From NCBI GenBank assembly GCA_949297805.1, contig CASFTG010000003.1, forward strand, positions 132,473 through 196,472: a stretch of 64,000 nt of DNA. Reading direction: 5' to 3'. Position numbers and translations under genes: made by a program. Shown piece by piece: positions 5,538 through 58,100 of the stretch. The notes below the pieces were generated by a model that saw nothing but the letters and a program-made list of their open reading frames with translations, searched no databases and had not been told where the DNA came from. Position 1 is the stretch's first letter. Every line of letters begins with the position of its first letter. Source of the DNA: an uncultured bacterium (GTDB taxonomy: Bacteria > Bacillota_I > Bacilli_A > RFN20 > CAG-826).

Positions 5538-7967
5538 ATGCACTACGATAAGTGGATTGCCCCAACCGATCCTAAACCGAGCGAAATGGAAAACGCCCAT
5601 GCTGAGCTGGCCTATCAAGCTGGCTTAGAGGGAATGGTTCTGTTAGCTAATGACGGGACTTTGCCGTTGAAGAATAAACGGATTGCCCTCTATGGCGTTG
5701 GGGCCCGGCACGCCACCAAAGGCGGGACGGGCTCGGGCGAAGTCCATAACCGTTATAACATCAGCGTCGAAGAGGGATTGAAAAAGGCCGGCTGCGAAAT
5801 ACTTAGTTCGGGATGGCTCAATCGGTTGGATCAGGTGCAGGCCCAAGCGGAGCACGACCGGGTTCTGGCCTTGAAGAAGCGGCTCCATGAATGTGGTTTA
5901 TTCGACTGGCAAGGAATGGTCAACGCCGCGGTCGAGGTACCGCCGGTTTTTCCTTCCTCCCTCCCAATAAACGAAAAACTCGATACCGACACCGCCATCT
6001 ACGTCTTAACCCGTCAAGCGGGGGAAGGGAATGATCGGAAGGCCGGGAAAGGGGACTATTACCTCACCGATTTGGAGGATGAGAACATCGCTTTCCTGGC
6101 CAAGAACTATCCTCATTTCGTCTTGGTCATCAATTCCGGCGCCCCAATCGACCTCTCGATCCTTGATGAGGTAACCATCGGCAACGTCGTTTTCATGGGT
6201 CAAGCGGGGCAAGAGGGGGGTCGGATATTGGCGGACTTGCTATTAGGGAATGCCAATTTCTCGGGGCATCTCACCCTATCCTGGCCGAAGAAACTGGCGG
6301 ACCTCCCCAACGGGACTACTTACTCCTATTTAAAGGGAACCACCGATTATGAGGACTATGTCGAGGGGGTTTATGTCGGTTATCGGTTCTTCGATACTTT
6401 TGGGGTCGAGCCTCGTTACTATTTTGGGGAAGGCCTCTCCTATACCGAGTTCTCTTTGACGGCCGTTTTGGTTAAGGAAGGCAGCGATTTCTTCCTCGAT
6501 TATGAAGTTCATAACGTCGGGAAATATGGCGGTAAGGCAGTGGTGCAAGTTTACGCCTCACCTTTTACCTCCGTTACTTCCGAAGCAAAGAAACTCATCG
6601 GTTTTACGAAAACTAAGACCATCGTTCCAGGGGACTCGGTCAAGGGTCGGATAGCCCTCGATCCGCGCGATTTGGCCTATTATGAGGAGGCAAAATCCTC
6701 CTATGTGATCGCTTCGGGCCATTATGTTATCGCCGCCGGTTTCTCTTCCGTTTGCCCAAAACCGGTTGGCGTGATCGATGCCAAGGAAGCAATCGTATCG
6801 GAACGCTGCTTCCAACTTGGCTCGGCGAAGGACGAAGTGGAGGAAATCATTCCGCCGGAAAGAAGATACGTCTGTTATGAAAATATCCCAGTAATTTGCC
6901 TGGAGAAGAATGATATCCCTCCCATCGAACATGATTATTCGCCTTCAAGCTATCTCTCTATTCCGGTTTCCGATGAGGTTCTATGCGATCTAGTGGTTGG
7001 ATATCTGAATCCGGTCTCAAGCGAGAAACCGGTCGCGATCCCCGGATTCGGCGGGCGGACCTCGGCGAAATACTATACTGAGCTCGGCATTGATTGTTTG
7101 GCGACCGCCGATGGACCGGCTGGCTTACGGCTCAATCCGAAGTTCGCCGGAAGCGACGGGAAGAAAGCCCATGGGTCGATGATTCCCGAGGATATGCGGC
7201 TCGGCCGTCCTTTCTATAATTTCGTCGATAAGCTTCTCTCGATATCCTTCGCGAAAAAGCATTATCAATATGCGACGGCCTTTCCGGTCGGCCTAGTGCA
7301 AGCCGCGACTTGGAATGTCAATCTAGTCGAGAAAATCGGGCAGGCGGTTGGGGAGGAAATGGCCGCTTACGACATCGATATCTGGCTAGCTCCCGGCATG
7401 AACATCGTCCGTAACCCCCTATGCGGAAGAACCTTTGAATACTATTCCGAGGACCCATTGTTGACCGGTTGCTTAGCTGGTTATTTATCCAAAGGGGTGA
7501 ATTCGGTTCCTGGCCGCGGTTTGACCTTAAAGCACTTTTGCTGCAACTCCCAGGAGGATGACCGTTTCCACTGTGATTCCCGTGTCCATGAACGGGCCTT
7601 GCGGGAGATATATCTCAAAGCCTTCAAGATCGCGATCGCCATCGGCAATCCAACCTGCGTCATGAGTTCCTACAACCGGGTCAACGGGGAGTATGCGGGT
7701 TCAAATTCTGATCTATGTGAACGAGTTTTGCGGTCAGAATTCGGATTTAAAGGGTTTGTGATGTCGGATTGGGACGCGCAAGCCTCTGACCGGGCCAGCT
7801 GCGAAGGGCAACTTAAAGGCGGGACCGATCTATTGATGCCGGGGTCCCGCTGGACGAGGGAAGAGACCGCCAAAGCGTTAAAAGAGGGAAGACTCTGCCG
7901 AGCCGATTTAGAGAAAGCCGTTAATCGGATAATCAATGTCGCCAATAGATTGAAGGAGGGCCAATAA
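5538..7967 (+). CDS. Glycoside hydrolase family 3 enzyme with circularly permuted domain order (C-domain first, catalytic domain last)
   Basis: The N-terminus has the GH3 C-domain signature (VLLANDGTLPLKNKRIALYG). The catalytic-domain motifs sit near the C-terminus ([32 protein letters not shown]). Confidence 0.85.
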   Translation: MHYDKWIAPTDPKPSEMENAHAELAYQAGLEGMVLLANDGTLPLKNKRIALYGVGARHATKGGTGSGEVHNRYNISVEEGLKKAGCEILSSGWLNRLDQVQAQAEHDRVLALKKRLHECGLFDWQGMVNAAVEVPPVFPSSLPINEKLDTDTAIYVLTRQAGEGNDRKAGKGDYYLTDLEDENIAFLAKNYPHFVLVINSGAPIDLSILDEVTIGNVVFMGQAGQEGGRILADLLLGNANFSGHLTLSWPKKLADLPNGTTYSYLKGTTDYEDYVEGVYVGYRFFDTFGVEPRYYFGEGLSYTEFSLTAVLVKEGSDFFLDYEVHNVGKYGGKAVVQVYASPFTSVTSEAKKLIGFTKTKTIVPGDSVKGRIALDPRDLAYYEEAKSSYVIASGHYVIAAGFSSVCPKPVGVIDAKEAIVSERCFQLGSAKDEVEEIIPPERRYVCYENIPVICLEKNDIPPIEHDYSPSSYLSIPVSDEVLCDLVVGYLNPVSSEKPVAIPGFGGRTSAKYYTELGIDCLATADGPAGLRLNPKFAGSDGKKAHGSMIPEDMRLGRPFYNFVDKLLSISFAKKHYQYATAFPVGLVQAATWNVNLVEKIGQAVGEEMAAYDIDIWLAPGMNIVRNPLCGRTFEYYSEDPLLTGCLAGYLSKGVNSVPGRGLTLKHFCCNSQEDDRFHCDSRVHERALREIYLKAFKIAIAIGNPTCVMSSYNRVNGEYAGSNSDLCERVLRSEFGFKGFVMSDWDAQASDRASCEGQLKGGTDLLMPGSRWTREETAKALKEGRLCRADLEKAVNRIINVANRLKEGQ

Positions 7968-21299: not shown

Positions 21300-22898
21300 T
21301 TAGTCGAATAAATCGGGGAAGGTGGTTTCGAAGTAGTCGTAGATGGTCTGATCGTGGTAGGAGAGAGCCATTTCTTCGACATAGTGCTGCTGGGCCGCCT
21401 TCTGGTAGGACTCAGTATCGGAGACTAACCCGGCGACGGAGTAGATGATGTCGTAAATGTTCTTACCCGCCATTTTGTCGTAGGAGGCATCGCCGCCTTG
21501 GACCAGTTTCGGGGCCTTGACCGCTTCGTCGACCCGGACGATGTACCAAGTCGAGGAATCCTTGTCGTAGATGCAATAAGGATATTGTTCATCGGTCTCG
21601 AATTGTTCGGGGACCATGTAGTAGGATCCGCCGACGTACCAACCGAAGTTGCCTTTGGCGTTGTCTTCCGCCGCCCCTTCCCGGTCGACTTCGTTGGCGA
21701 CGGTGATCTTGAACAAGCGGTTCGAGATCGAGGAGGCCAGATCGCTTAAGCCGGTCGAAGTGTACCAGCCTTCGGTGACGTGGCTGGTGGCGACGGTTTC
21801 CCGTTTCTTGATTTCCAAGCCGGTTTCCTTGGTATAGGCCCCAGCGTTGGTGAAGTCAGTCGAGGAACCGGTGACGTTCCGGTCGTCGGAGAGACCCTTG
21901 TACTCGACGGCGATGTCGCCATAGGTCGTCTCTTCGTAGGTGGCTTCGGTATTATCGTCCGCCGAGGCTTCGACCAGGGTGAACCCGGCGTCGGTGTAGA
22001 TTTGCTGAGCGAACTTGAAGTCTTCGTTATTCTCCGCATCGACGAAGTAGCCTTTGTAAAGCTGATCGAGGAAGTGGAGGTCGCGGTACTTCGCGTCGAC
22101 TTCGGGGTTATTGAGGACCAGCTTGGCGTAGGAACGGACTAACCGTTGGGTGCCGAATTGGACGCCATCGATGTCGGGAAGAGCGATGTATTGGACTTTC
22201 CGGGCATAGGAACGGCCGAGGACGCCATAGTTGTTGTCGAGGAGGTATTGCTCGACTAAGGCTTTCCGATAGATCGTCGGGAGGATGCTCCGCTCAATGT
22301 AGTCCTCATAGGTGACGTACATATTGGTGAAGTACTCTTCGACGTCTTCATAGCTCTTGGCCCCATCGAGGGCGGTTTCTTTGAAGGTATCGAGGCTGCC
22401 GAGCTTATAAAGCTCCGCGACCTGAGCCCGGTAGAACTCCTTCTCCAAGAAGAGGGAACGGCGTTGATAGGTGGTGTTCTCAACGACGGCCCACATCTGG
22501 GTCTCGATCTGATCGACGACGTGGTTGATGAAGGCTAAGGCATTGGCCTGGCCTTTCTCCCCTTCGCCATAGACCGGATGGTTGGCGACGAAGGAGGCGA
22601 GTTTTGAGTTGTCGGTATAGACCTCATACATTCCCCCTTCGCCGAAGAACTCTCCGAAGAGTCCTTTGGAATAGAGGGCGAGGATGTTGTTGAGAACTTT
22701 CTCCGAATTGGAGTCGCCGGCGGTGACCAAAGCATCGTAGATTTGGCCCATGTTGTTGTTAACAACGTCCGAAATGTTGAGGATCGGGGCATTGGCGACA
22801 TCGTCGGGGAGCCCGGCTTCGACGTCGGAGCAGGACGCGAGGCCGAGGGTGGCGGCCGCTAAGGCGGTCAAAGCAAAGGCTTTAAATTTATTTTCCAT
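21300..22898 (-). CDS. Large lipoprotein of unknown function
   Basis: Signal peptide plus lipobox (MENKFKAFALTALAAATLGLASC). The mature protein is rich in D/T/Y/E. A GGAGGAG RBS precedes it. Confidence 0.7.
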   Translation of the reverse strand: MENKFKAFALTALAAATLGLASCSDVEAGLPDDVANAPILNISDVVNNNMGQIYDALVTAGDSNSEKVLNNILALYSKGLFGEFFGEGGMYEVYTDNSKLASFVANHPVYGEGEKGQANALAFINHVVDQIETQMWAVVENTTYQRRSLFLEKEFYRAQVAELYKLGSLDTFKETALDGAKSYEDVEEYFTNMYVTYEDYIERSILPTIYRKALVEQYLLDNNYGVLGRSYARKVQYIALPDIDGVQFGTQRLVRSYAKLVLNNPEVDAKYRDLHFLDQLYKGYFVDAENNEDFKFAQQIYTDAGFTLVEASADDNTEATYEETTYGDIAVEYKGLSDDRNVTGSSTDFTNAGAYTKETGLEIKKRETVATSHVTEGWYTSTGLSDLASSISNRLFKITVANEVDREGAAEDNAKGNFGWYVGGSYYMVPEQFETDEQYPYCIYDKDSSTWYIVRVDEAVKAPKLVQGGDASYDKMAGKNIYDIIYSVAGLVSDTESYQKAAQQHYVEEMALSYHDQTIYDYFETTFPDLFD

Positions 22899-25026
22899 CG
22901 TAGCAAGCTCCTCCATAAGCCCATTCGCCAGTCCCTTCCCGGGCGGCGTCGCTGTTGTAGCCGATGGCGCAGGTCTCGGAAATCAGCTTCTGGCTGCCGT
23001 CTTCCTTCATGGTGCGGGCGGCATCCTGTTGTTCGAGGTATTCGGCGTAGGTGACCCAGTCATCGTCGAAGGACTTTTGAGCGTCATCGACGGCTTTTTG
23101 CCGGGTGATGCGGATGTAATCCTTGATCAGTTTCCCGAAATCGGCATCAGCGAAGGTGATCTTCGAGCTGTTGAGCAATTCCTGGAAGATGTAGTTGTCG
23201 AGGTTGGTGTCGAAGCCTTGGATGGCGTCTTTGACCTTCTTGGCGTTGTCGGCGTAGGTCGAGTCGGCCGAGACCAGTTTGTTGACGAAGGTGGTCTTGG
23301 CGACGGCCTTTCCATCCTCTACATAATAAGGATAATAGTCGGCTTCCTTATCCGCGGTGACCGAACTCGGATTGCTCGGGATGCGGTCCGGGGTCAGGAT
23401 CGAGTAGTAGTCGTTGAGCGAGGTGATGTTCGACGTGGTCTTGTTGGCGTCGTAATCAGCCTTGGTATTCTCCTTGATGGTGTTAGTGGCCGAATCGAAG
23501 GTCACGCCATATTCGGAGAGGGCCGAACGGTCAGCAACGATGAAGTGGATTCCTTGATAGGAGGAAGTGCCAGCCCGGACGGCAAGGATGATTTGGCCCT
23601 TGTCGTTGGTTAAGACGTTGCTGCCGATATCCGGGAGGATGTCGGTGGTATCGACCGAGAAGCCCGGGAGGGCGGCGTATTCGGCATCGAGCGTGCCAGC
23701 GGTGATCGGCTGGCCGTTGGTGTCCGCTTCCTTGTTGACATCGTAGGTTTTGGCCTGGCTATTTTCCTGGTGAATGTCGCCAGTCGGGGTGGCTGCGTTG
23801 GCCGTAGTCGTCCCGTCAAGCAAGTCATTGTAGGAGATGCGGTTCGGGGTGATGACGGCGATCTGATGGTTGTTGAAGTACTTGTTGAACAGGATGTTCC
23901 GCGCGTAGTAGGTGGCGGAATTCTCGTTGACCTGATAGCCGAGGTCCGGCTCACCGCCAGTGGCGGAATAGGAGACGGAGGCATCGGCGAGGGCGACGGC
24001 GGCGCCATAGGGGATGGTGCCGAGGCCGCGGTCGACGAACTCCTGCTTGACCGAGGAGCCATCATCGAGCTTGGCGTCTTCACTCGGGAGGAGGCGGTTC
24101 TTCATCTCCTCGGTGGCGTAGGCGTTGTTGGTCTGATCGGCATAGAGGGCATCGTAAGCATAGAGGCCGAGTTTGAATTCGTGGACGAACTCCGTCGTGA
24201 GGTCCATGATGCCGAGGTCGCCGTAATTCGACGAGGACTCGGTGTCATCGGAGAGCTCATAGGCGATCGAACCGAAGCTCAAGCGCTGATTGACTGGGGT
24301 GGTGCCGTGGGTATTGTCCGAGGTATCGGCGCCGGCGAGTTCCTTGATGACGTCGCCAAGTTTCTCGCTCTCAGTGGCCGAGATGGTGGCTTGGGCGTGC
24401 TCGTTGCTGCTGGCCGATTCGAACTTAACTAGGATGTGGGAGACGTGATAGGGCATCCGGGTCTTGAGATAGCCATCGCTGACCGGGCCGAATTCCGCTT
24501 CGGCCTCGGCGGTCCGTAAGCTGTCCCAAAGGGAGCCATCCCGCATCTTGCCAAGGTTGCTATTGGTGTAATAGTCCTTGGTGAATTGATCTTCTTCTAA
24601 TTCGTAAAGCTTGGCATCGAGCAACTCATCGACGTTGTCGACGTTGTTCGAATCCAAGAGGGCTTCGAATTCCTCTTGGTAGCTGGTGCCATTGTTATTG
24701 GCATTGGTCTCGGCCTGGCTCTTGATGCCATCGACGGCATTCTGGGCTTGATTCTGCAAGTCGGCGAGTTTGCTGGCTTGGGCCGGTTCCTGGTAGTACT
24801 GGCGGATCAATACTTCCTTGACCTTGGAATAGGCGGTGCTGGCGGAGCTGGCGGAATTCTGATAATCGCCGAAGAGGTCCTCAGCGGTGTATTGGATTCG
24901 ATTTCCGGACGCATCCGTATAAGTTAGCAGCACGCCTTCGTCGTAAGTGACCTCGGAGCAGGCAGCGAGGGCGCCGCCGGCCACGAAGGCTCCGACTAGA
25001 CCAAGGGTGAGTTTAGTTTTCTTCAT
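22888..25026 (-). CDS. Large lipoprotein (712 aa) with a possible parvulin/PrsA-like segment
   Basis: Lipobox MKKTKLTLGLVGAFVAGGALAAC. Internal HVSHILVKF and GDLGIMD motifs resemble the parvulin PPIase motifs HILVK and GDLG. Confidence 0.7.
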   Translation of the reverse strand: MKKTKLTLGLVGAFVAGGALAACSEVTYDEGVLLTYTDASGNRIQYTAEDLFGDYQNSASSASTAYSKVKEVLIRQYYQEPAQASKLADLQNQAQNAVDGIKSQAETNANNNGTSYQEEFEALLDSNNVDNVDELLDAKLYELEEDQFTKDYYTNSNLGKMRDGSLWDSLRTAEAEAEFGPVSDGYLKTRMPYHVSHILVKFESASSNEHAQATISATESEKLGDVIKELAGADTSDNTHGTTPVNQRLSFGSIAYELSDDTESSSNYGDLGIMDLTTEFVHEFKLGLYAYDALYADQTNNAYATEEMKNRLLPSEDAKLDDGSSVKQEFVDRGLGTIPYGAAVALADASVSYSATGGEPDLGYQVNENSATYYARNILFNKYFNNHQIAVITPNRISYNDLLDGTTTANAATPTGDIHQENSQAKTYDVNKEADTNGQPITAGTLDAEYAALPGFSVDTTDILPDIGSNVLTNDKGQIILAVRAGTSSYQGIHFIVADRSALSEYGVTFDSATNTIKENTKADYDANKTTSNITSLNDYYSILTPDRIPSNPSSVTADKEADYYPYYVEDGKAVAKTTFVNKLVSADSTYADNAKKVKDAIQGFDTNLDNYIFQELLNSSKITFADADFGKLIKDYIRITRQKAVDDAQKSFDDDWVTYAEYLEQQDAARTMKEDGSQKLISETCAIGYNSDAAREGTGEWAYGGACYDGK

Positions 25027-46972: not shown

Positions 46973-47785
46973 ATGCGAGTCCTTTTCTTAGGCGACGTCG
47001 TCGGACCGGTGGGGTTGCAGTCCCTTGAATCCCTCCTCCCCGCGCTTAAGGAAAGGCTTTCGCCGCATCTAGTCATCGTTAACGGGGAGAACGCCTCCAA
47101 AGGGCGGGGTCTCACTCGAGCCGACTATAATCGGATTAAAGCCGCTGGGGCTGATGTCATCACCCTCGGTAACCATTTCCTCGATAAGAAGCAGATTTCC
47201 TCCTTCATCGATGATTGCCCGGATTTACTTAGGCCTCTGAATTCGGCTGATTACGAGAAAGGCCGGGGGCTTGGCGTCTACCAAACTGCCCTTGGTCCCG
47301 TCGCCGTGGCCTCGATCCTCTTGCCGGCTTTCGTTAACAACAAAGTGAATAATCCCTTCGAGGTTTTCGAGAAGGCCTTGGTTGATCTTCCAAGTATCCG
47401 CATCGTCGATCTCCATGGGGAGTCGACCTCGGAGAAGCAGCTTTTCTTCCATTACTTCCGGGGCCGCTGCTCGGCGATACTCGGGACCCATACCCACGTG
47501 ATGACCGCCGACGCCGAAATCAAAGAGGGGACCGCCTTTATGGCTGATGTCGGGATGTGCGGGGCCGATGATTCGATCATTGGGGTTGACCCCCAAAGCG
47601 TCATCAATCGTTTAATCAAGCAAGACGGTACCTATTTCCATTGCCCGGAAGATGGGATTGGACTCGTCTGCGGAGCCTATTTGGAAATCGAAGAAGACGG
47701 GAAAGCGAGCCGCATCATCCCGTTCCGTTTCCGCGATAATAAGGAGATTGCCTATGAGCCGTTGCCAAATCATATCCCTGCCTGA
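46973..47785 (+). CDS. ymdB: YmdB-family metallophosphoesterase (2',3'-cNMP phosphodiesterase, TIGR00282)
   Basis: MRVLFLGDVVG..., GNH, GTHTHV motifs. Follows rny, as in B. subtilis. Confidence 0.85.
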   Translation: MRVLFLGDVVGPVGLQSLESLLPALKERLSPHLVIVNGENASKGRGLTRADYNRIKAAGADVITLGNHFLDKKQISSFIDDCPDLLRPLNSADYEKGRGLGVYQTALGPVAVASILLPAFVNNKVNNPFEVFEKALVDLPSIRIVDLHGESTSEKQLFFHYFRGRCSAILGTHTHVMTADAEIKEGTAFMADVGMCGADDSIIGVDPQSVINRLIKQDGTYFHCPEDGIGLVCGAYLEIEEDGKASRIIPFRFRDNKEIAYEPLPNHIPA

Positions 47786-49493
47786 CTTAAGCAAAGCGAG
47801 AAACCGTCAGGATGGGGCCAGCGTCAAATACGATGAAGCCGTCTATAGCGACGCGCTCCGCTTTTTTGCCAAGGGCCGAAAGTATTTGGTTAAGACCTTT
47901 GGCTGCCAAGGCAATGTCCGGGACGAAGAGGTCATATCCGGCTATTTGGAGAAGGCCGGATTCAGTAAAACTACTGATGAAAAGGCGGCCAATATCGTCA
48001 TCATCAATACCTGCGCTGTCCGGGAGAATGCCGAGGATAAGGTCTATGGCGAGATTGGGAAGTTTAAGGCCAATGCCAAGACCGATAAGGATTTCATCCT
48101 CGGCGTCTGCGGCTGCATGATGCAGGAAGAAAACAAAGCCGAAAGCCTGATTAAGACCTATCCTTTCATCAGATTGATTTTCGGGACCCATAATATCGCT
48201 GACTTACCCTCGATGCTTGATCGCGTGATTAGCAGTCACCAGGGCTTAGTTGATGTAATCTCCTATCCCGGGGACGTTATTGAGAATCTTCCTTCGATTC
48301 GGCTTGATCCTTACAAAGCCTTCGTCAATATCTCCTATGGCTGCGATAAGTTCTGCACTTATTGCATTGTCCCCTATACCCGGGGAAGAGAAAGGAGCCG
48401 GCCTTTGCAATCGATCCTTGATGAATGCCGAAAGCTTATTGAGGATGGGTATCAGGAAATCACCCTTTTGGGGCAAAACGTCAATTCCTATGGTAAGGAT
48501 TTCCATGATGGGACCAACTTCGCGACCGTCTTAGAGGAAGTGGCTAAACTTGGTATCCCCCGACTTCGCTTTACTACCTCCCACCCTTGGGACTTCTCGT
48601 TGGATATGCTTGATACCATTGCGAAGTACCCAAACATCATGAAATGTATCCACCTCCCCGTCCAAAGCGGCTCGACCGCGGTCCTTCGTCAAATGGGGCG
48701 CCGTTATACGAGAGAACAATATCTGGACCTAGTCAAAGCCATCCGCGAGAGGATGCCGGAATGCGCCATCACCACCGACATCATCGTCGGCTTCCCAAAT
48801 GAGACCGAAGAGCAATTCGCGGAGACTTTAACCCTTTGTCAGGAATTGAAGTATGACGCCGCCTTCACCTTCATCTATTCCCCCCGGGCGGGGACGCCGG
48901 CCGCCAAAATGGTCGATAACGTCTCCGATGAAGTGAAGCACGAACGGTTCAATAGGCTGCTGAAGGTTGTCGAGGAAGGGGTCGTCTATCATTCGTCGAA
49001 AATGGTTGGGAAAGCCTATGATGTTTTAGTCGATGGGCCGAGCAAGAAAAACGAAGCCATCCTTTCTGGCTATACCGAATCGAACAAGCTGGTCAATTTC
49101 CCTGGCCCGGTTTATTTAAAGGGGCATATCGTTAAGGTCAAGATCACTGAAAACCATGCCTTCTCGATGCTTGGGCAATTAGAAGAGGATCCGGTCGATG
49201 TCTTGTTGCGAAGCGCCTCGGAAAAGCTAAAGCAGGAGCCGGCCTATATCCAATATTTGGCGGCGAAGAAAGTTTTTGAGGAAGATAAGGAATTGCAAGC
49301 GGCCCTCCATGAAAAAGAAGCGGCTCAAAAAGCCCTGGCCTTATCGATGGGGAGCGAAGATTACGAAAATAAGAAGGCGGCTTTTGCGAAGATTTCCGCC
49401 TTCGTGGACAATAATCCCAATTACATAAATTTCGTTTCTTCAACCGCCGATCTGCGGGACTTATTTGCCGAAATGAAGGCCCTCCTCCAATGA
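47754..49493 (+). CDS. miaB: tRNA i6A37 methylthiotransferase MiaB fused to a C-terminal YmcA/YlbF (RicA)-like domain
   Basis: MTTase N-domain (KTFGCQGN). Radical-SAM CDKFCTYC. TRAM domain ending ..HIVKVKITENHAFSMLGQL. Then ~100 extra aa (SEKLKQEPAYIQYLAAKKVFEEDKELQAAL ... NPNYINFVSSTADLRDLFAEMKALL) matching the Com_YlbF helix pattern. The AAGGAG RBS lies inside ymdB. Confidence 0.85.
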   Translation: MSRCQIISLPDLSKARNRQDGASVKYDEAVYSDALRFFAKGRKYLVKTFGCQGNVRDEEVISGYLEKAGFSKTTDEKAANIVIINTCAVRENAEDKVYGEIGKFKANAKTDKDFILGVCGCMMQEENKAESLIKTYPFIRLIFGTHNIADLPSMLDRVISSHQGLVDVISYPGDVIENLPSIRLDPYKAFVNISYGCDKFCTYCIVPYTRGRERSRPLQSILDECRKLIEDGYQEITLLGQNVNSYGKDFHDGTNFATVLEEVAKLGIPRLRFTTSHPWDFSLDMLDTIAKYPNIMKCIHLPVQSGSTAVLRQMGRRYTREQYLDLVKAIRERMPECAITTDIIVGFPNETEEQFAETLTLCQELKYDAAFTFIYSPRAGTPAAKMVDNVSDEVKHERFNRLLKVVEEGVVYHSSKMVGKAYDVLVDGPSKKNEAILSGYTESNKLVNFPGPVYLKGHIVKVKITENHAFSMLGQLEEDPVDVLLRSASEKLKQEPAYIQYLAAKKVFEEDKELQAALHEKEAAQKALALSMGSEDYENKKAAFAKISAFVDNNPNYINFVSSTADLRDLFAEMKALLQ

Positions 49494-52908: not shown

Positions 52909-52947
52909 GAAGATTCCCTCCTACATATTAAGTAGGAGGATTTTCTT

Positions 52948-54981
52948 TTGGGCTTATTTAAGACGCGGAGATTATCGAAGACCTATGGCCATGGGGATAA
53001 CCGGGTCGTCGCTTTAAAAGCGGCCGATATCGCCTTGCCCAAGACTGGGTTTATCGGTATTGAAGGCGAAAGCGGTTCGGGCAAAAGCACGTTATTGAAC
53101 TTATTGGCTCGATTTGAAAAGCCCAGCGGTGGGGTGATCGGTTTTAAGGGGAAGAACCTAGCGAAAATGAATTCGAGCCAAGAGCTCGGCTATCGGCAGC
53201 ATTCGGTCGGATTGGTCTTTCAGCATTACAACTTGCTAGAGGACAAGACGTTATTAGATAACATCGCCTTCCCATTGGTCTTATCGGGGGTAAGTCCAAA
53301 AGAGGCCAGAGCAAAGGCACGAAACCTAGCGAATGGCATCTTGAATGAGAACCTATTGGATAAGAAACCCAGCGAGTGCTCGGGCGGGGAGAAACAACGG
53401 GCGGCATTACTACGGGCCCTCATCATCGAACCGGAGGCGATCTTCGCCGATGAACCGACCGGGGCTTTGGACGAAGATAATGCCATTAAGGTGATGGAAC
53501 TATTAAAAGAAGCGTCAACCAAAAGGTTAATTGTCGTGGTCTCCCATAATCATGGACTGCTTAGTAAGTATGCTGAGCGGATATTGAATATCGCTTCCGG
53601 GATGGTAAGCGGCGGGAAGGAGAAAACCGACCCTGGGCCCTTAGCTAAAGGCCATGGATCTAGTTGGTGGATTGGGGAAGGAATGCGGGAGGCGAAGCGG
53701 TCAGGAAGACGGTTATTGAGTTGCTTCGCCGCTTGCTTGATTGGCTTTTCTTCACTGCTTTGTTCGGCGGCTTTCTTCTTGGGCTATAAGCCTTGTTTGC
53801 ACGAGGAAAGAATCCGGAGTCTTGACGCTGGGGTAGCGACGGTCAGCTATGAAAGAAGCGTTTCGACTGACGATTCATTATTGTCGCTAGTTGTTCAGGA
53901 AAGGCCTTCCTTTGATTCGGTTTACGGAGCCTTGTCATCCCTTTCTTCCTTCTCCATCGAAAACGATTATTCTTTCCTTCTTCCTAGTTCGGTCGAGTTT
54001 CGTTTATCGGGGGAAGCGGGGGAGGCGGAACTAGTTCCCGTTGCTTCCTTAAATAGCAAATACGCCCAGGCCCTGCTTAACGAAGGGTCGTTGCCTAATG
54101 ACGATTTGGCCTCTTGCCTAGTCAATGAGGCTTTCGTCGACAAATATGGGTCTGACTCCCTTGGGCGTTCGTTATTGATTCAGGCCGGTGGCAACTATAC
54201 CGGGGAGGGATGGGAGAAGGATATCGATCTCGAACTATCGATGCTTATCGAAGGGGTCGTCGATGAGTTCGCCTTTCTCAATAGCCCCCGAATTTATTAT
54301 TCCTACTCGGCGTTTGAGGAATTCGCCGCGAGCCTCGTGATGTATGGGGGAAAAGAGAAAGGGGTAACTTTGCAAGAACTATGCAAAAACGCCTTGCCTA
54401 CTTCCTTTTATTCCAATTATCAATATCGCGTTTTCGTGAATGAGGAACAAGATTTGCAGCCTTTCTTTGAAATTTTGCACTCATATTCGGAAGAAGACGC
54501 ACCTTTGGCTTTCACTTCAAGGGCTTTCTTAAGCTATACCTCATTTGCCGACTTAAGTTCAGCCCTCTCCTCTTGCCTGACTCTGTTCCTTGGGATCGAA
54601 CTCCTCTTCGTTGGGTCGGTCATCGTCTTATCGGTCCTTTCCCTTTTTGCCAGTTCGCGGAAGACCATGGCCATCATGATGGCGCTTGGGGCGAAGAAGG
54701 TTCCGGTCATCGGCTGCTTTGCTATTCCGAATTTCTTGATGATCGGAGTCGCAGCCATATTAAGCGTTCCTTTGGCCATCGGTTTAATAAAAGGGCTAAA
54801 CTTCGGCTTTCAAAGTTTTTTCGGCCTGCATTCTTTATTACGGCTCGGATCCGGTGGTATCTATTCTTTAATTTGGGTGGCTTTAGGGTCGGTGGTCTTA
54901 ATCTTTTTTCTGGTCTCGTTCGTTTCGTTGGCCCTAGCTTTCCGGAAGTTAAACCTCAGCAAGGAGATGCGCGATGAATGA
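52948..54981 (+). CDS. MacB-type fused ABC ATPase-FtsX permease (677 aa) with a degenerate ABC signature
   Basis: TTG start, AGGAGGA RBS 7 nt upstream. Walker A GESGSGKST. The signature is CSGGEKQRA rather than LSGGQ. Walker B IFADEP. TM1 sits near residue 260, followed by a ~250-aa extracytoplasmic domain and a C-terminal 3-TM FtsX domain. Confidence 0.8.
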   Translation: MGLFKTRRLSKTYGHGDNRVVALKAADIALPKTGFIGIEGESGSGKSTLLNLLARFEKPSGGVIGFKGKNLAKMNSSQELGYRQHSVGLVFQHYNLLEDKTLLDNIAFPLVLSGVSPKEARAKARNLANGILNENLLDKKPSECSGGEKQRAALLRALIIEPEAIFADEPTGALDEDNAIKVMELLKEASTKRLIVVVSHNHGLLSKYAERILNIASGMVSGGKEKTDPGPLAKGHGSSWWIGEGMREAKRSGRRLLSCFAACLIGFSSLLCSAAFFLGYKPCLHEERIRSLDAGVATVSYERSVSTDDSLLSLVVQERPSFDSVYGALSSLSSFSIENDYSFLLPSSVEFRLSGEAGEAELVPVASLNSKYAQALLNEGSLPNDDLASCLVNEAFVDKYGSDSLGRSLLIQAGGNYTGEGWEKDIDLELSMLIEGVVDEFAFLNSPRIYYSYSAFEEFAASLVMYGGKEKGVTLQELCKNALPTSFYSNYQYRVFVNEEQDLQPFFEILHSYSEEDAPLAFTSRAFLSYTSFADLSSALSSCLTLFLGIELLFVGSVIVLSVLSLFASSRKTMAIMMALGAKKVPVIGCFAIPNFLMIGVAAILSVPLAIGLIKGLNFGFQSFFGLHSLLRLGSGGIYSLIWVALGSVVLIFFLVSFVSLALAFRKLNLSKEMRDE

Positions 54982-57751
54982 GCTGATCCATCTACGGAAG
55001 GTTAATAAGCGGTTTAACTCCGAATCGGCGTTAGTTGACATTAACCTTGACTTGCCGAGGAAAGGTTTTATCGCTTTGGTCGGGGAGTCTGGTTCCGGCA
55101 AGTCGACCTTATTGAATTTAGTTTCCGGATTGCTTAGCGGCTTCTCTGGTTTGGCGGAAGTCGATGGGGTCAACTTAGGAAGGTTGGACGAGGAAGGCAA
55201 AAGGGCGTTTCGCCTAGGAAGAATTGGTTTCTTAGATCAAAACGTTTGCCTGCTCGATAGTGAGACGGCGCTTGCCAATGTCGAGTTTCCCCTTGATGCC
55301 ATCTATGGGGAACCGCGGAAACTGCGCGAACGGCGGGCTAAGGATTTATTGCGGTTTGTCAGCGTTAAGGAATTGACTTGTAAAAATGTCAATGAAATGA
55401 GTGGTGGACAACGTCAACGAGTCGGTTTAGCGGTTTGCCTGGCCGCCAATCCGAAGATTGTTTTGGCCGATGAGCCAACGGCCGCCCTCGACGCGGAAAA
55501 CGGCTCTTCGGTGATGGAGGTTTTGAAAAAGGTTTCCCTAAATCGGCTGGTCATCGTCGTGAGCCATGACGAAAATTTGCTCGCCTCTTTCGCCGATCGA
55601 ATCATCCGTCTTAAAGACGGGAAGATAGTCGATGATCGGAAAATTACTGTTGAGACGAAAGAGGGGGAGGTATTGGCCTTGCGCCTATGCAAACATAAGG
55701 CAAATGTCCGTCCGGATTGGTTCAGTTTACTCCGCCATGCCGCCCATAATCTGGGGCGAAGGAAGATCCGTTCGTTGTTTATGCTCGGATCGTTGGTGGC
55801 TTCCTTTATTGGCGTCAGCGCTGGCGTCTACTTAACCGATTCGATTGAAAATGAGGTCAGCGGAGCCTTTTCCTCTATTGTGCCGCCTGGAAGAATCGTC
55901 ATGGAGAAGAAAGGCGGCGGAGAGGTTGGCTATGAAGGGCTTACCGCCGCGAGCGAGTTGCAGGTGATGACACTAGAGGATACTTATCCTCAATATATAT
56001 TAGGTTCGGGGTCGACTTTGCTATTCGATTTCTCTTCCTTGTTCGTCTCCGGAGATAGTTTTAGTTTTCTGCGGAGCTCGAAGCGGATTGAGTTTCCGTC
56101 CTTCTCGGCTCGGAACATCAACGAGTTTCTTTGGCTTGAGGAAACGTATCCGGAGGTGTTCCCGAGCTTCCCTATTTCGATGGAACTCGATGAGGTGGTG
56201 GTGGGGTTGCCATTCGCTGACATGGCTGCCCTTTGTTTTGACTTAGGAATTGAACGAGACTATGAAAGCCTAGGGGAATTATGCCGAATCGGTGGTCTTC
56301 GCCTGCTTGTTCAACTGGATAATAATGAGATTGATTTCCATAACGAGGATCTATTTTCCGTGGTCGGGGTGGTGAAATCGGAGGCTCCTTGTTTTTATCA
56401 TCTGAACCGAAAATGGAACGAGGAGTATTTCCTCGATCACCTGAATTTCCGTTCCTCAATCAGCAGCGATACCCTTAATCCTCAATCGGTCTTCGCCCTT
56501 CCTTATATCGTTTTGAAGACCGATCCAGAGAAGGCGTTAAAAGCTTTTCGTGAAGGCGGATTTACCGAGGGGATATGCTTTGATTTTTCCTTGCCAGGCT
56601 ATCTCTCTTCCTTAACCAGTCACGATTGGGAAAGACCTTCGAAACGGGCCTACCTATATTCGGTTTCTAACTACAATCTAAACGTCAACAATACTTTGAA
56701 TATCGCTGAACTTGATGGGGTGAATGGTCTTCAGCTTTGTTCTAACTCCTCCTACCTTTCTTATACCGATAATTTGGTTTCGGGGTTCGCCAACGCCTTT
56801 TATTTATCCAATAGTTATGATGATGTTTTCCTAGTGGGCGAGACGGCGTCTCGACTAGCCAAATCCGATCCTCTCACCTCGTTATCACTCCCGGAAAGTG
56901 TAAAGGACGGGAACTATCTTTCCGCTTCTAGGGGAGGTTTGCATTTAAGTAGCGATTTTACGGGGTTAAAAGAGGAAGAACTTCCGCAAAACCTACGGGA
57001 AATTGTTATTTCTTCCTCTTTAGAGGAGTTTTGGGGAAGGCCGCAGAACCTCTATGCCGCGATTGAATATATCGACCCGCTTGGCTCTAATTCTCGAAAG
57101 ATCGCTTTCTTTGAATTCGTTGTCAAAGGGGTGAAATCCTGCTCGACCGACACCATTTTCGTCCCGTCTTTTTGGATTAATGATTTCTTCGCCACCCAAA
57201 CTCCAACTAGCGGACTCTCGCTGCTTCCGAATAATGCCGTCATCTATTGCGGCGAGGAAGAGGAAGCTAGTTTATTGGAGGCCTTGTCAAAGCAATACCC
57301 AGACTACCGATTTGTCAATCCAACCTCGCTAATCGATATGAGCTTCGGCGGGGCGACGGAGTATATTTCCTTGGTTTTGATTGTCTTCTCCTCAATCCTG
57401 TTTCTCCTTTCGATCGTGGTCTTTGCCTATGCCATTTCCTTATATCGGATTGAGCTATCCGGGGAATGGCGTTACTTCCGTTTGCTGGGTTTGTCGGAAA
57501 AGGATGAGAAGCGATCGCTCTATGCCTTATGCCTCCTATTGACGTTGCTTGGTCTATTGCCATCTTTGATTGGTTTGGCGATGGTCGAGTTCCTTGGTCA
57601 TCTATTCATCGCCGCCTCTTTCAATACGGCGTCTCATTTCGTCTTCTCCTTCCTTCCCTTTGTGGTGATGGTCGGTCTGGCCATTTTCTTCCTGGCGTTA
57701 GCCTTGGTGTTGACTGGAAGCAAGAGCCTAAAGCCAAATAGGCAAAATTGA
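54974..57751 (+). CDS. MacB-type fused ABC ATPase-FtsX permease (925 aa) with a large extracytoplasmic domain
   Basis: Canonical Walker A GESGSGKST, MSGGQRQR signature, VLADEPTAALD, SHDE. TM1 near residue 255, a ~480-aa external domain, a C-terminal FtsX 3-TM bundle. The ATG overlaps the upstream stop. Confidence 0.8.
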   Translation: MNELIHLRKVNKRFNSESALVDINLDLPRKGFIALVGESGSGKSTLLNLVSGLLSGFSGLAEVDGVNLGRLDEEGKRAFRLGRIGFLDQNVCLLDSETALANVEFPLDAIYGEPRKLRERRAKDLLRFVSVKELTCKNVNEMSGGQRQRVGLAVCLAANPKIVLADEPTAALDAENGSSVMEVLKKVSLNRLVIVVSHDENLLASFADRIIRLKDGKIVDDRKITVETKEGEVLALRLCKHKANVRPDWFSLLRHAAHNLGRRKIRSLFMLGSLVASFIGVSAGVYLTDSIENEVSGAFSSIVPPGRIVMEKKGGGEVGYEGLTAASELQVMTLEDTYPQYILGSGSTLLFDFSSLFVSGDSFSFLRSSKRIEFPSFSARNINEFLWLEETYPEVFPSFPISMELDEVVVGLPFADMAALCFDLGIERDYESLGELCRIGGLRLLVQLDNNEIDFHNEDLFSVVGVVKSEAPCFYHLNRKWNEEYFLDHLNFRSSISSDTLNPQSVFALPYIVLKTDPEKALKAFREGGFTEGICFDFSLPGYLSSLTSHDWERPSKRAYLYSVSNYNLNVNNTLNIAELDGVNGLQLCSNSSYLSYTDNLVSGFANAFYLSNSYDDVFLVGETASRLAKSDPLTSLSLPESVKDGNYLSASRGGLHLSSDFTGLKEEELPQNLREIVISSSLEEFWGRPQNLYAAIEYIDPLGSNSRKIAFFEFVVKGVKSCSTDTIFVPSFWINDFFATQTPTSGLSLLPNNAVIYCGEEEEASLLEALSKQYPDYRFVNPTSLIDMSFGGATEYISLVLIVFSSILFLLSIVVFAYAISLYRIELSGEWRYFRLLGLSEKDEKRSLYALCLLLTLLGLLPSLIGLAMVEFLGHLFIAASFNTASHFVFSFLPFVVMVGLAIFFLALALVLTGSKSLKPNRQN

Positions 57752-57836
57752 GGAAATTTTGTTTAAACCATTCCGGGTTCGTTGTATATTAACCGCGGTC
57801 ATTCGATACATCGAAGACCAGGAAGGTAAAGGTCTC

Positions 57837-58049
57837 ATGAAGGGAACAGTCAAGATGTTCAACAAAGAGAAGGGCTACGGTTTCATCCACGCCGAAGATA
57901 ACCGTGACTACTTCTTCCACTACTCCGCCCTTATCATGGACGAACCCGATGCTTACAAGATCGCCGACAAAGGCGAGCACGTCGAGTTCGATGTCCAAGA
58001 GTCGGAACGTGGGCCGCGCGCGGCGAACGTTAAGAAAATCGCTGAATAA
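57837..58049 (+). CDS. Cold-shock protein (CspA family)
   Basis: MKGTVKMFNKEKGYGFI (RNP1-like) and FFHYSAL (RNP2). 70 aa. I chose the ATG at 57837 (AGGAAGG RBS) over the longer ORF-track start. Confidence 0.85.
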   Translation: MKGTVKMFNKEKGYGFIHAEDNRDYFFHYSALIMDEPDAYKIADKGEHVEFDVQESERGPRAANVKKIAE

Positions 58050-58069
58050 AAGCCGGTAGCGCACTTCTG

Positions 58070-58100
58070 AGCCTTACCTAACCGTAAGGCTTTTCTTTTT
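58070..58100 (+). terminator. Rho-independent terminator after csp
   Basis: GCCTTAC-CTAACC-GTAAGGC followed by TTTTCTTTTT. Confidence 0.6.

Follow-up and report, generated by a model that had tools for sequence, protein, structure and literature searches.

A conserved pair of overlapping genes for two unlike MacB-type ABC half-transporters, plausibly a heterodimer, in uncultured gut Bacilli

Introduction

Type VII ABC systems (MacB, LolCDE, FtsEX, YbbAP) perform mechanical work in the cell envelope, each with a distinct and important job, and MacB, from E. coli, A. actinomycetemcomitans and A. baumannii, is their prototype. A stretch of 64,000 nucleotides from an uncultured bacterium (the window) carries two adjacent genes, here called A and B, whose products both resemble MacB in architecture. 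This raises the question of whether A and B are the two halves of one machine or two machines that share an operon, and what envelope task they might perform. An earlier note on the same DNA had taken an unusual signature motif in A as typical of obligate heterodimers in which one ATP site is catalytic and the other degenerate. All coordinates given below are positions in the window, on the forward strand.

The hosts of such gene pairs are uncultured gut and rumen Bacilli, and close relatives are annotated as Candidatus Enteromonas, which has been assigned to RFN20/CAG-826 and has small type genomes of 1.2-1.8 Mb (PMC8035907). The RFN20/CAG-826 family is predicted to be peptidoglycan-deficient, with most species predicted to have no peptidoglycan genes (PMC10868615), and the host of the pair is a monoderm that is probably wall-less. 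The window is placed in this group by the similarity of its YchF and B proteins to those of named MAGs.

Gene organization and protein architecture

Gene A (52948..54981) encodes 677 amino acids from a TTG start, and the N-terminus so defined agrees with those of its orthologues; gene B (54974..57751) encodes 925 amino acids from an ATG start. The two overlap by 8 nt (ATGAATGA, 54974..54981), with the B ATG lying over the A stop codon, and an AAGGAG ribosome-binding site for B sits within the 3' end of A, an arrangement that indicates translational coupling. Each protein consists, in order, of an ABC ATPase, a first transmembrane helix (TM1), a large external domain and three further TM helices, the 1+3 pattern being seen by hydropathy in both. 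Pfam ABC_tran is matched strongly (E 1e-24 for A, 6e-27 for B), and the Pfam FtsX scores of 20.9 bits (A) and 24.1 bits (B) fall slightly under the cut-off of 25.5, a threshold that orthologues exceed. With an ATPase of the LolD/FtsE/MacB subfamily, four TM helices and an FtsX-type C-terminal module of three TM helices, both A and B are members of the type VII (MacB/FtsX) ABC superfamily, as fused ABC ATPase/FtsX-type half-transporters. The open reading frames, Pfam and hydropathy thus agree with the earlier description of two adjacent, overlapping genes with MacB architecture in single polypeptides.

ATPase domains and signature motifs

The nucleotide-binding domain (NBD) occupies residues 1-225 in both A (52948..53622) and B (54974..55648), with all catalytic motifs intact. 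Among NCBIfam models the best matches are LolD, FtsE, L_ocin_972 and MacB, with every score far under the curated cut-off, and the best PDB sequence matches are MJ0796, MacB, LolD and BceA. Translation confirms the CSGGE signature that the earlier note had read in A (53377..53391), but B, which had been described as a fully canonical LSGGQ, in fact reads MSGGQ (55397..55411).

Both motifs are best seen against their families, in each of which LSGGE is the consensus (51/56 A and 67/70 B orthologues). Position 5 is glutamate in every A orthologue (56/56) and in 67/70 B orthologues, where it is the consensus, and position 1 of the A signature is C in five of the 56 orthologues and L in all the others. 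The E. coli LolD signature, LSGGERQR, likewise contains LSGGE. All of the 56 A and 70 B orthologues (100%) keep the Walker A Lys, Q-loop Gln, S-G-G, Walker B Asp-Glu and H-loop His; the D-loop Asp is found in 56/56 A and 69/70 B, the lone exception being a D-to-S change in one B. In the usual asymmetric heterodimer, the catalytic Glu or His is substituted in one NBD and the signature is broken in the other. That pattern of an altered Glu or His in one NBD and a broken signature in its partner is absent across the 56 A and 70 B orthologues. CSGGE, judged by these alignments, is a minor L-to-C variant of LSGGE and not a degenerate motif, and both ATP sites would be canonical, with ATPases predicted to be catalytically competent. 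The earlier view of CSGGE as the mark of a degenerate site consequently does not hold, since LSGGE is the consensus of LolD and of the family and the catalytic residues are invariant. A caution follows for annotation more generally: LSGGE is normal in LolD/FtsE-type ATPases and is not to be taken for degeneracy.

Membrane parts and external domains

In A, TM1 (about residues 255-280, 53710..53787) is assigned by hydropathy, as is the external domain of 255 aa that follows it (about residues 281-535, 53788..54552), and the FtsX-type C-terminal permease domain with TM2-TM4 (54553..54978) is supported by the Pfam FtsX match, hydropathy and the alignment. The external domain carries a conserved motif in the orthologue alignment, E-F-x-F-L-N-x-P-x-x-Y-Y-S-Y, and the C-terminal tail, E-L-R-D-E, is also conserved. 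In B, TM1 (about residues 265-288, 55766..55837) is placed by hydropathy and a structural model, the external domain spans residues 289-790 (about 500 aa, 55838..57343), and the FtsX-type domain with TM2-TM4 (57344..57748) is supported by Pfam, hydropathy, the model and conservation.

Both external domains are sequence orphans. Pfam finds no family in those of 21 A and 25 B members, the MacB periplasmic-domain family being without a match in the external domains scanned, and a profile search of PDB sequences with both domains gave nothing significant. The earlier statement that the two domains have no recognisable similarity to each other stands at the level of BLASTP, by which they are unrelated, but is partly off at the profile level, where their C-terminal halves show a weak profile-profile match (hhalign probability 72%, E 3.5e-5).

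An AF2 model of B (pLDDT 82.5) has the full-length MacB chains 5lil, 5gko and 5nik as its top Foldseek matches, with about 935-958 aligned columns, E-values of 9e-30 to 3e-22 and target-normalised TM-scores of 0.51-0.64, and the modelled fold of B is accordingly MacB-like. TM1 belongs in the model to one long helix (residues 264-302) that reaches past the membrane as a stalk, TM2 forms another long helix (783-827), and a short helix (829-838) lies between TM2 and TM3, flanked by the conserved residues E827 and G839. Stalk helices and a coupling helix are described features of MacB (PMC5985334), and the long TM1 and TM2 helices and the short TM2-TM3 helix of the B model match the MacB stalk and coupling helix respectively. 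In the model, the external domain of B is an alpha/beta fold of several subdomains, whose core may correspond to the Porter subdomain of type VII proteins, with its two beta-alpha-beta motifs joined to the stalk helices. Its nearest structures are the external domains of MacB, FtsX, LolE, LolC, YbbP and YtrF, all with weak resemblance; the periplasmic domains of LolE and LolC are the best Foldseek matches, at 7-12% identity, a likeness at the level of fold alone.

Conservation of the pair and its neighbourhood

The pair was followed through 80 loci in GTDB species-level genomes, anchored on the adjacent ychF gene. A and B lie upstream of ychF in every one of these loci with enough upstream DNA, and this recurrence at one position argues that they are not a chance pair of open reading frames. 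In all 56 resolved pairs the start of B overlaps the stop of A by 8, 4 or 1 nt, and the genes at this locus are never split or single. Nor are they ever fused, a state in relatives that the earlier note had named as one that would speak against its heterodimer. The two genes also occur together in 6/6 contigs of relatives, at identities down to 27%. When the NBDs are compared, none of 110 has its nearest neighbour in the other family, A and B always clustering by family, which places the duplication before the origin of this group of genomes; by this clustering, A and B are old paralogues. After divergence of YchF and ArgS is removed, divergence of the A external domain remains correlated with that of the B external domain (partial r 0.64, against 0.16-0.46 for controls), which lends weak support to a partnership but may reflect no more than fast evolution of both proteins in shared genomes.

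The neighbours of the pair are housekeeping genes (fhs, DUF951, csp, ychF, ispF and argS). No gene for a membrane-fusion protein (MacA/HlyD family), hydrolase or two-component system was found in the 64,000-nt window, nor was any found adjoining the pair at the loci of six relatives, so the earlier impression that no partner gene is visible is borne out at both scales. A LolA-like carrier gene has no candidate near the pair.

Hairpin upstream of gene A

Immediately upstream of A, a stem-loop (CCTCCTAC-loop-GTAGGAGG, 52917..52939) precedes a T-run whose last bases belong to the TTG start of A. This terminator-like element resembles an intrinsic terminator for the fhs/DUF951 genes that lie upstream, and its 3' arm is the Shine-Dalgarno sequence of A. 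A scan for sigma-70 promoters found none between DUF951 and A, and sigma-70 sites were overall fewer than in shuffled sequence. No credible Rfam family was found for the hairpin, and RNAalifold gave no consensus when the sequences preceding A were aligned with MAFFT, several rows of that alignment being out of register.

Equivalent hairpins are present upstream of A in most of 57 loci. Folding energies over positions -45 to -1 give a median z of -3.9 for A, compared with -0.67 for ychF and +0.22 for B, and the Shine-Dalgarno sequence lies wholly within a 3' arm at 34/45 A loci as against 2/40 and 9/66 in controls. For a helix specified by hand on the upstream-of-A alignment, 72.7% of cells are paired, compared with 46-55% for slid controls. 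The conserved hairpin is predicted to bury the ribosome-binding site of A.

Comparison with known type VII systems

MacB works as a homodimer with the MacA adaptor and TolC in diderms, whereas A and B are two unlike paralogues in a monoderm with no adaptor gene; the adjacent adaptor gene that goes with MacAB-TolC is missing from the window and from six related loci. Their external domains match no Pfam family in sequence, and that of B is about 2.5 times larger than that of MacB. Against the MacB equivalog model PRK10535, A and B score 136.8 and 143.6 bits, with the N-terminal part only, compared with a cut-off of 966.

LolCDE offers a likeness in that the two permeases of this heteromeric type VII machine are paralogues that share the labour between their external domains, and in that its ATPase, LolD, has the LSGGE signature that is the consensus of the A and B families. 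It differs in that LolD is a separate protein serving both halves, whereas the ATPases of A and B are fused, and in that its lipoproteins pass to periplasmic LolA in diderms, whereas the host of A and B has no outer membrane. The LolD model TIGR02211 gives 183 bits for A and 138 for B, below its cut-off of 307.75, and neither protein is assigned to LolCDE.

FtsEX has an unfused ATPase, forms a homodimer, has a small external domain and works with a cell-wall hydrolase or an activator. A and B share none of these traits, having fused ATPases, external domains of 255 and 500 aa and no adjoining hydrolase. YbbAP-TesA, BceAB, YtrEF and HrtBA belong to the same superfamily as A and B but make the ATPase as a protein of its own. 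Among their permeases, YbbP and BceB have ten TM helices as a result of internal duplication (PMC5985334); A and B have four TM helices per protein with a fused ATPase, and genes for a histidine kinase or response regulator are absent from their surroundings. The defined partners TesA (of YbbAP) and BceRS (of BceAB) have no counterparts near the pair. The substrates of these systems are hydrophobic or membrane-associated and lie in the outer leaflet, as described for YbbAP (PMC12646458).

Possible mode of action and alternative explanations

An A-B heterodimer remains the best reading of the locus and is plausible on the grounds of strict pairing, overlap with translational coupling, and synteny, not on those of the signature motif. 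In full, A and B would be paralogous half-transporters, each with a competent ATPase, assembled as a heterodimer with a constitutive task in the envelope, a proposal to which we give about an even chance. A and B would be made together from one message, with translation of B coupled to that of A, and would assemble with two canonical ATP sites. When ATP drew the ATPase domains together, the motion would travel up the long TM1/TM2 stalk helices, as in MacB and LolCDE, and shift the dissimilar external domains (one of about 255 aa, the other of about 500 aa) at the cell surface, with no solute carried across the membrane; the mode of action would thus be mechanotransmission. The asymmetry of the external domains recalls LolC and LolE, of which one domain deals with the substrate while a partner is left to the other.

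The conservation of this lineage-specific pair at one locus in every related genome examined suggests that its envelope function is important. A syntenic core feature of small-genome Bacilli akin to Ca. Enteromonas, whose family is predicted to be wall-less, with housekeeping neighbours and no adaptor, hydrolase or sensor gene beside it, points to a constitutive envelope job and not to an inducible resistance pump, and we infer a constitutive housekeeping role. As to the task itself, the most plausible guess is that the pair draws lipoproteins, lipids, membrane-bound peptides or other hydrophobic or lipid-anchored molecules out of the outer leaflet.

The alternative that survives best is that A and B each homodimerise into a MacB-like machine (A2 and B2) that works independently of the other, with its own substrate and nothing but the operon in common. 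This is possible, if rather unlikely. Each protein has complete NBD motifs and a full FtsX-type module with four TM helices, enough to homodimerise like MacB, and those fused MacB proteins that have been characterised work as homodimers (PMC5985334). Moreover, two related genomes carry a third fused ABC-FtsX gene, solitary and placed after a MarR regulator gene, which is the look of an accessory homodimeric pump in this group and which, as a foil to the always paired A and B, also speaks for their partnership. By contrast, A and B overlap in 56/56 resolved pairs with neither found alone at the locus, their evolutionary rates are correlated above housekeeping controls, and small genomes would be expected to drop one of two independent pumps now and then.

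A resistance pump for antimicrobial peptides or toxins, of the Gram-positive MacB/YknYZ/BceAB kind and clearing membrane-active peptides from the outer leaflet, would fit the commonest documented role of Gram-positive MacB-type systems (PMC5985334), and the NBDs score well on the bacteriocin-export ATPase model TIGR03608. Such a role is nonetheless improbable here: the NCBIfam scores are all far below curated cut-offs, two-component, membrane-fusion and immunity/bacteriocin genes are all lacking around the pair, both in the window and in relatives, and the housekeeping position is fixed though B identity falls to 27%, unlike accessory resistance loci. A divergent replacement of FtsEX, controlling a division-associated cell-wall hydrolase, is very improbable, with FtsE model TIGR02673 scores of 161.6 (A) and 144 (B) bits against an equivalog cut-off of 264.85, external domains 2.5-5 times the size of those of FtsX (102-117 residues in solved fragments), no adjoining gene for a hydrolase or coiled-coil activator, and a host family in which most species are predicted to have no peptidoglycan genes (PMC10868615). 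The obligate heterodimer with one degenerate site is hardly credible: the C for L at position 1 of the A signature and the strict co-inheritance of A and B would fit, but conservation contradicts it, as the E at position 5 is normal in LolD, the C occurs in just 5/56 A, and neither family has a substitution of the sort that marks a degenerate site.

If the A-B heterodimer is real, it would add a new subunit arrangement to the type VII superfamily. A combination of two different NBD-fused halves is not among the permutations listed in the 2018 review of the MacB family (PMC5985334), and searches of the open-access literature found no account of a heterodimeric type VII system with fused NBDs. 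A bolder and altogether tentative version, which we consider unlikely to be right in all its parts, is that of a first type VII machine made of two different NBD-fused half-transporters, essential and constitutive in Mycoplasma-like gut Bacilli predicted to be wall-less, in which the asymmetric orphan external domains would draw lipoproteins or lipids out of a naked membrane or present them there, and the hairpin, as terminator and mask of the ribosome-binding site, would gate synthesis.

Related proteins in databases

In a word-indexed protein search, full-length B drew mostly generic ABC ATPases, with at least nine full-length relatives, and the C-terminal part of A likewise drew at least nine. 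An alignment of 25 B external domains drew no match from the 8000 candidates considered, a list that true relatives probably did not reach. With the B external domain of the window as query, no close relative was found among GTDB species genomes, and an exhaustive search of 1.84 billion representatives yielded 210 relatives of this domain. An anti-phage role was considered and set aside, since PADLOC matched defence proteins only in part, over the generic ABC-ATPase region. Proteins of the A and B type are named in public records merely as "ATP-binding cassette domain-containing protein".

Architecture of the gene pair

Two overlapping genes, A (52948-54981, 677 aa) and B (54974-57751, 925 aa), lie in tandem on the forward strand, at the positions where they were originally read. 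A begins with TTG and has an AGGAGG ahead of its start; the ATG of B falls inside the 3' end of A, giving an overlap of 8 nt (ATGAATGA), and an AAGGAG ribosome-binding site for B is located within the last codons of A. The proposal that each gene encodes a MacB-type transporter in a single polypeptide is borne out. Pfam ABC_tran is matched at the N-terminus (E 1e-24 in A, 6e-27 in B) and the FtsX permease domain at the C-terminus, where scores of 20.9 bits (A) and 24.1 (B) lie just under the cut-off of 25.5 and those of the orthologues exceed it. A hydropathy scan gives the same membrane layout for both, in which a single segment past the ATPase is followed by three C-terminal ones. The external domain left between them is about 255 aa long in A (residues 281-535) and reaches about 500 aa in B (residues 289-790).

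Full-length B was modelled with AlphaFold2 (9 input sequences; mean pLDDT 82.5). The model shows an ABC domain at the N-terminus, TM1 and TM2 as extended helices (264-302, very long, and 783-827, long) and a short helix linking TM2 and TM3. MacB has been described as having an ABC domain, stalk helices and a coupling helix (PMC5985334), to which the TM1/TM2 helices (stalk) and the TM2-TM3 helix (coupling) of the model correspond. The top Foldseek matches of the B model in the PDB are the full-length MacB chains 5lil, 5gko, 5lj7 and 5nik, aligned over about 935-958 columns (E 9e-30 to 3e-22), with isolated ATPase domains all ranking lower, and a family A profile matches the sequences of MJ0796, MacB (through TM1), LolD and BceA. 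On these grounds the type VII (MacB) architecture is well supported. Neither protein is MacB, LolD or FtsE proper, since neither scores near any NCBIfam equivalog cut-off.

Signature motifs and ATP sites

The earlier note had taken CSGGE, the signature motif of A, as the mark of a degenerate ATP site. This does not hold. In E. coli LolD, whose ATPase is fully active, the signature region is LSGGERQR, and orthologues of A and B, drawn from 80 ychF-anchored loci of GTDB species-representative genomes and six metagenomic contigs, carry the same type of motif. Family A has LSGGE in 51 of 56 sequences and CSGGE in five, the latter restricted to near relatives of the window. The first position in family B is L in 68/70 and M in 2/70, and the fifth is E in 67/70 and Q in 3/70; a separate regex count agreed. 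CSGGE thus reads as a conservative first-position variant of the normal family A motif. B had been called fully canonical; its signature reads MSGGQ rather than LSGGQ, and measured against its own family it is the more unusual of the two. Every one of the 56 A and 70 B sequences keeps the Walker A Lys, the Q-loop Gln, the S-G-G of the signature, the Walker B Asp-Glu and the H-loop His, and the D-loop Asp is replaced in just one B. The catalytic motifs of both proteins are therefore intact, and their sequences give no sign of a dead ATP site.

Pairing of A and B

The idea of a heterodimer survives, on evidence other than the signature motif. Each of the six contigs with B relatives (identity as low as 27%) has an A-type gene, with a product of 664-693 aa, that lies directly upstream of the B-type gene and overlaps it, and both genes are present in every ychF-anchored locus with enough upstream DNA. 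The A stop and B start overlap in 56/56 pairs with both starts placed, by 8 nt in 19, 4 nt in 34 and 1 nt in three. Fusion into a single gene in relatives, which had been named as an observation that would count against the proposal, was looked for and is absent from these 56 resolved pairs, as are separated or single genes. The ATPase domains, about 37% identical between the families, always cluster with their own (0/110 sequences with a nearest neighbour across A/B), so the duplication is older than the divergence of these genomes. With YchF and ArgS divergence regressed out, the pairwise divergences of the A and B external domains are still correlated (partial r 0.64, controls 0.16-0.46), a weak support for partnership since fast-evolving proteins tend toward correlated divergence anyway. 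Taken as a whole, the genomic evidence is strong that A and B are obligate partners, and an A-B heterodimer may be inferred.

A third, solitary gene fusing ABC_tran, an external domain and FtsX (E 6e-16 and 6e-15) occurs in two related loci, L032 (17641-20755, 874 aa) and L040 (16813-19849, 868 aa). In both it directly follows, and overlaps, a MarR-family regulator gene; in contrast to A-B, it looks like an accessory, regulated, homodimeric MacB-like pump.

External domains

The two external domains had been considered to share no recognisable similarity. This holds for BLASTP, in which A and B align only over their ATPase domains (36% identity), but profile comparison by hhalign gives a weak match between the C-terminal halves of the external domains (probability 72%, E 3.5e-5). 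No Pfam family was matched by any of the external domains scanned, from 21 diverse members of family A and 25 of family B, and profile searches against PDB sequences returned no match for either. Modelled alone, and with good confidence, the external domain of B (pLDDT 84, pTM 0.81) forms a string of beta-alpha-beta units, and Foldseek ranks the LolE periplasmic domain first (E 2e-5), then LolCDE, YbbP, LolC and MacB, with query-normalised TM-scores of just 0.2-0.24. The fold prediction suggested for these domains, run for B, thus points to a core of the type VII kind, probably the Porter subdomain, and leaves about 250 or more residues without a close solved relative.

Searched exhaustively with HMMER, a set of 1.84 billion cluster representatives yielded 210 relatives of this domain at E up to 1e-3, 67 of them at E up to 1e-30. 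Among the matches listed (150 of 210), full-length proteins are about 900-945 aa and the position of the domain is unchanged, indicating a narrow family with a single fixed architecture. The sole name carried by clusters of the B family is "ATP-binding cassette domain-containing protein", and their sources are Ca. Enteromonas pullistercoris, Mollicutes bacterium and Erysipelotrichaceae bacterium.

A hairpin ahead of A

A single hairpin takes up essentially all of the short stretch separating A from the upstream gene (fhs or DUF951), and in the window it lies at 52917-52939 (CCTCCTAC, a 7-nt loop, GTAGGAGG). It is followed by ATTTTCTTTTG, a T-run whose final three bases are the TTG start of A, and taken together the element resembles an intrinsic terminator; its 3' arm is also the Shine-Dalgarno sequence of A. 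No Rfam family matches it. Most of 57 loci have an equivalent hairpin before A, which starts a median of 20 nt past the upstream stop codon and ends 0-4 nt before the A start. Folding of the 45 nt ahead of A, compared with shuffles, gives a median z of -3.9 (below -2 in 74%), against -0.67 and +0.22 for the regions before ychF and B, and the Shine-Dalgarno sequence is entirely within the 3' arm in 34/45 A loci against 2/40 and 9/66 in controls. In a MAFFT alignment that was left unfitted, pairing is seen in 72.7% of cells, compared with 46-55% when the partner is slid, and seven of eight pairs have changes on both sides. These statistics suggest that synthesis of A-B may be kept low, or may depend on read-through or upstream translation. 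Start codons of A in the 57 loci (ATG 36, GTG 12, TTG 9; non-ATG 21/57), and the ATG of B in almost all, would fit a design in which A is deliberately initiated weakly and B is translated by coupling.

Neighbourhood, host and proposed role

The pair is flanked by housekeeping genes, with rny, ymdB, miaB, miaA, a ThiF-family gene, fhs and DUF951 upstream and a cold-shock protein gene, ychF, ispF and argS downstream, in an order unchanged in the relatives. Elsewhere the window contains glycosidases, rhamnose catabolism, Suf, gidAB, parAB, der, recA and similar genes. As had been noted for the vicinity of the pair, the window contains neither a membrane-fusion protein nor a hydrolase nor a two-component system. 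The nearest YchF sequences, at 84-90% identity, belong to MAGs whose labels read uncultured bacterium, Erysipelotrichaceae or Candidatus Enteromonas. The last corresponds in GTDB to genus UBA733 of family CAG-826 in order RFN20, and one type genome is 1.2 Mb (PMC8035907); most species of CAG-826 and CAG-288 are predicted to be without peptidoglycan genes (PMC10868615). A host close to Ca. Enteromonas and wall-less may be inferred, and its membrane is probably naked.

A and B would be co-translated and assemble as a heterodimer with two working ATP sites, in which ATP-driven NBD closure would be passed via the stalk helices to the asymmetric pair of external domains, by analogy with MacB and LolCDE. 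Because the pair, apparently constitutive, is syntenic and has no partner gene, and because the host membrane is probably naked, a housekeeping task in the envelope is favoured over inducible peptide resistance or control of a wall hydrolase. It could for instance extract or present lipoproteins, lipids or further molecules of the outer leaflet, the substrate class being a guess. The system is a conserved variant of a known superfamily, specific to this lineage and with external domains that are orphans, of moderate interest for specialists in ABC mechanotransducers and Mollicutes-like gut bacteria.

Other features of the window

The cold-shock gene (57838-58049) has its own promoter-like site at 57762-57790, just past the B stop, and is followed by a clean terminator-like hairpin at 58069-58092. 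There is no terminator-like site between B and this gene, so read-through from A-B into it is possible. Two overlapping reverse-strand genes (21300-22916 and 22888-25026) encode large predicted lipoproteins of 538 and 712 aa, with lipoboxes LASC and LAAC close to the N-terminus and no Pfam match; a SHILV stretch in the larger may be PrsA/parvulin-like, and GC and GC skew are raised in this region. A MiaB-type radical SAM methylthiotransferase with a C-terminal Com_YlbF domain is encoded at 47652-49493 and in the related locus L001 (1400-3148), and in another, L002 (MiaB-type gene 960-2664), a separate gene of 90 aa encodes the YlbF-like part; the former is a lineage-specific gene fusion. Finally, a forward-strand GH3 gene at 5538-7967 has a permuted domain order (GH3 C-terminal domain at residues 33-282, Fn3-like 335-404, GH3 N-terminal domain 578-801) and adjoins a GH3 of normal order at 850-3291.
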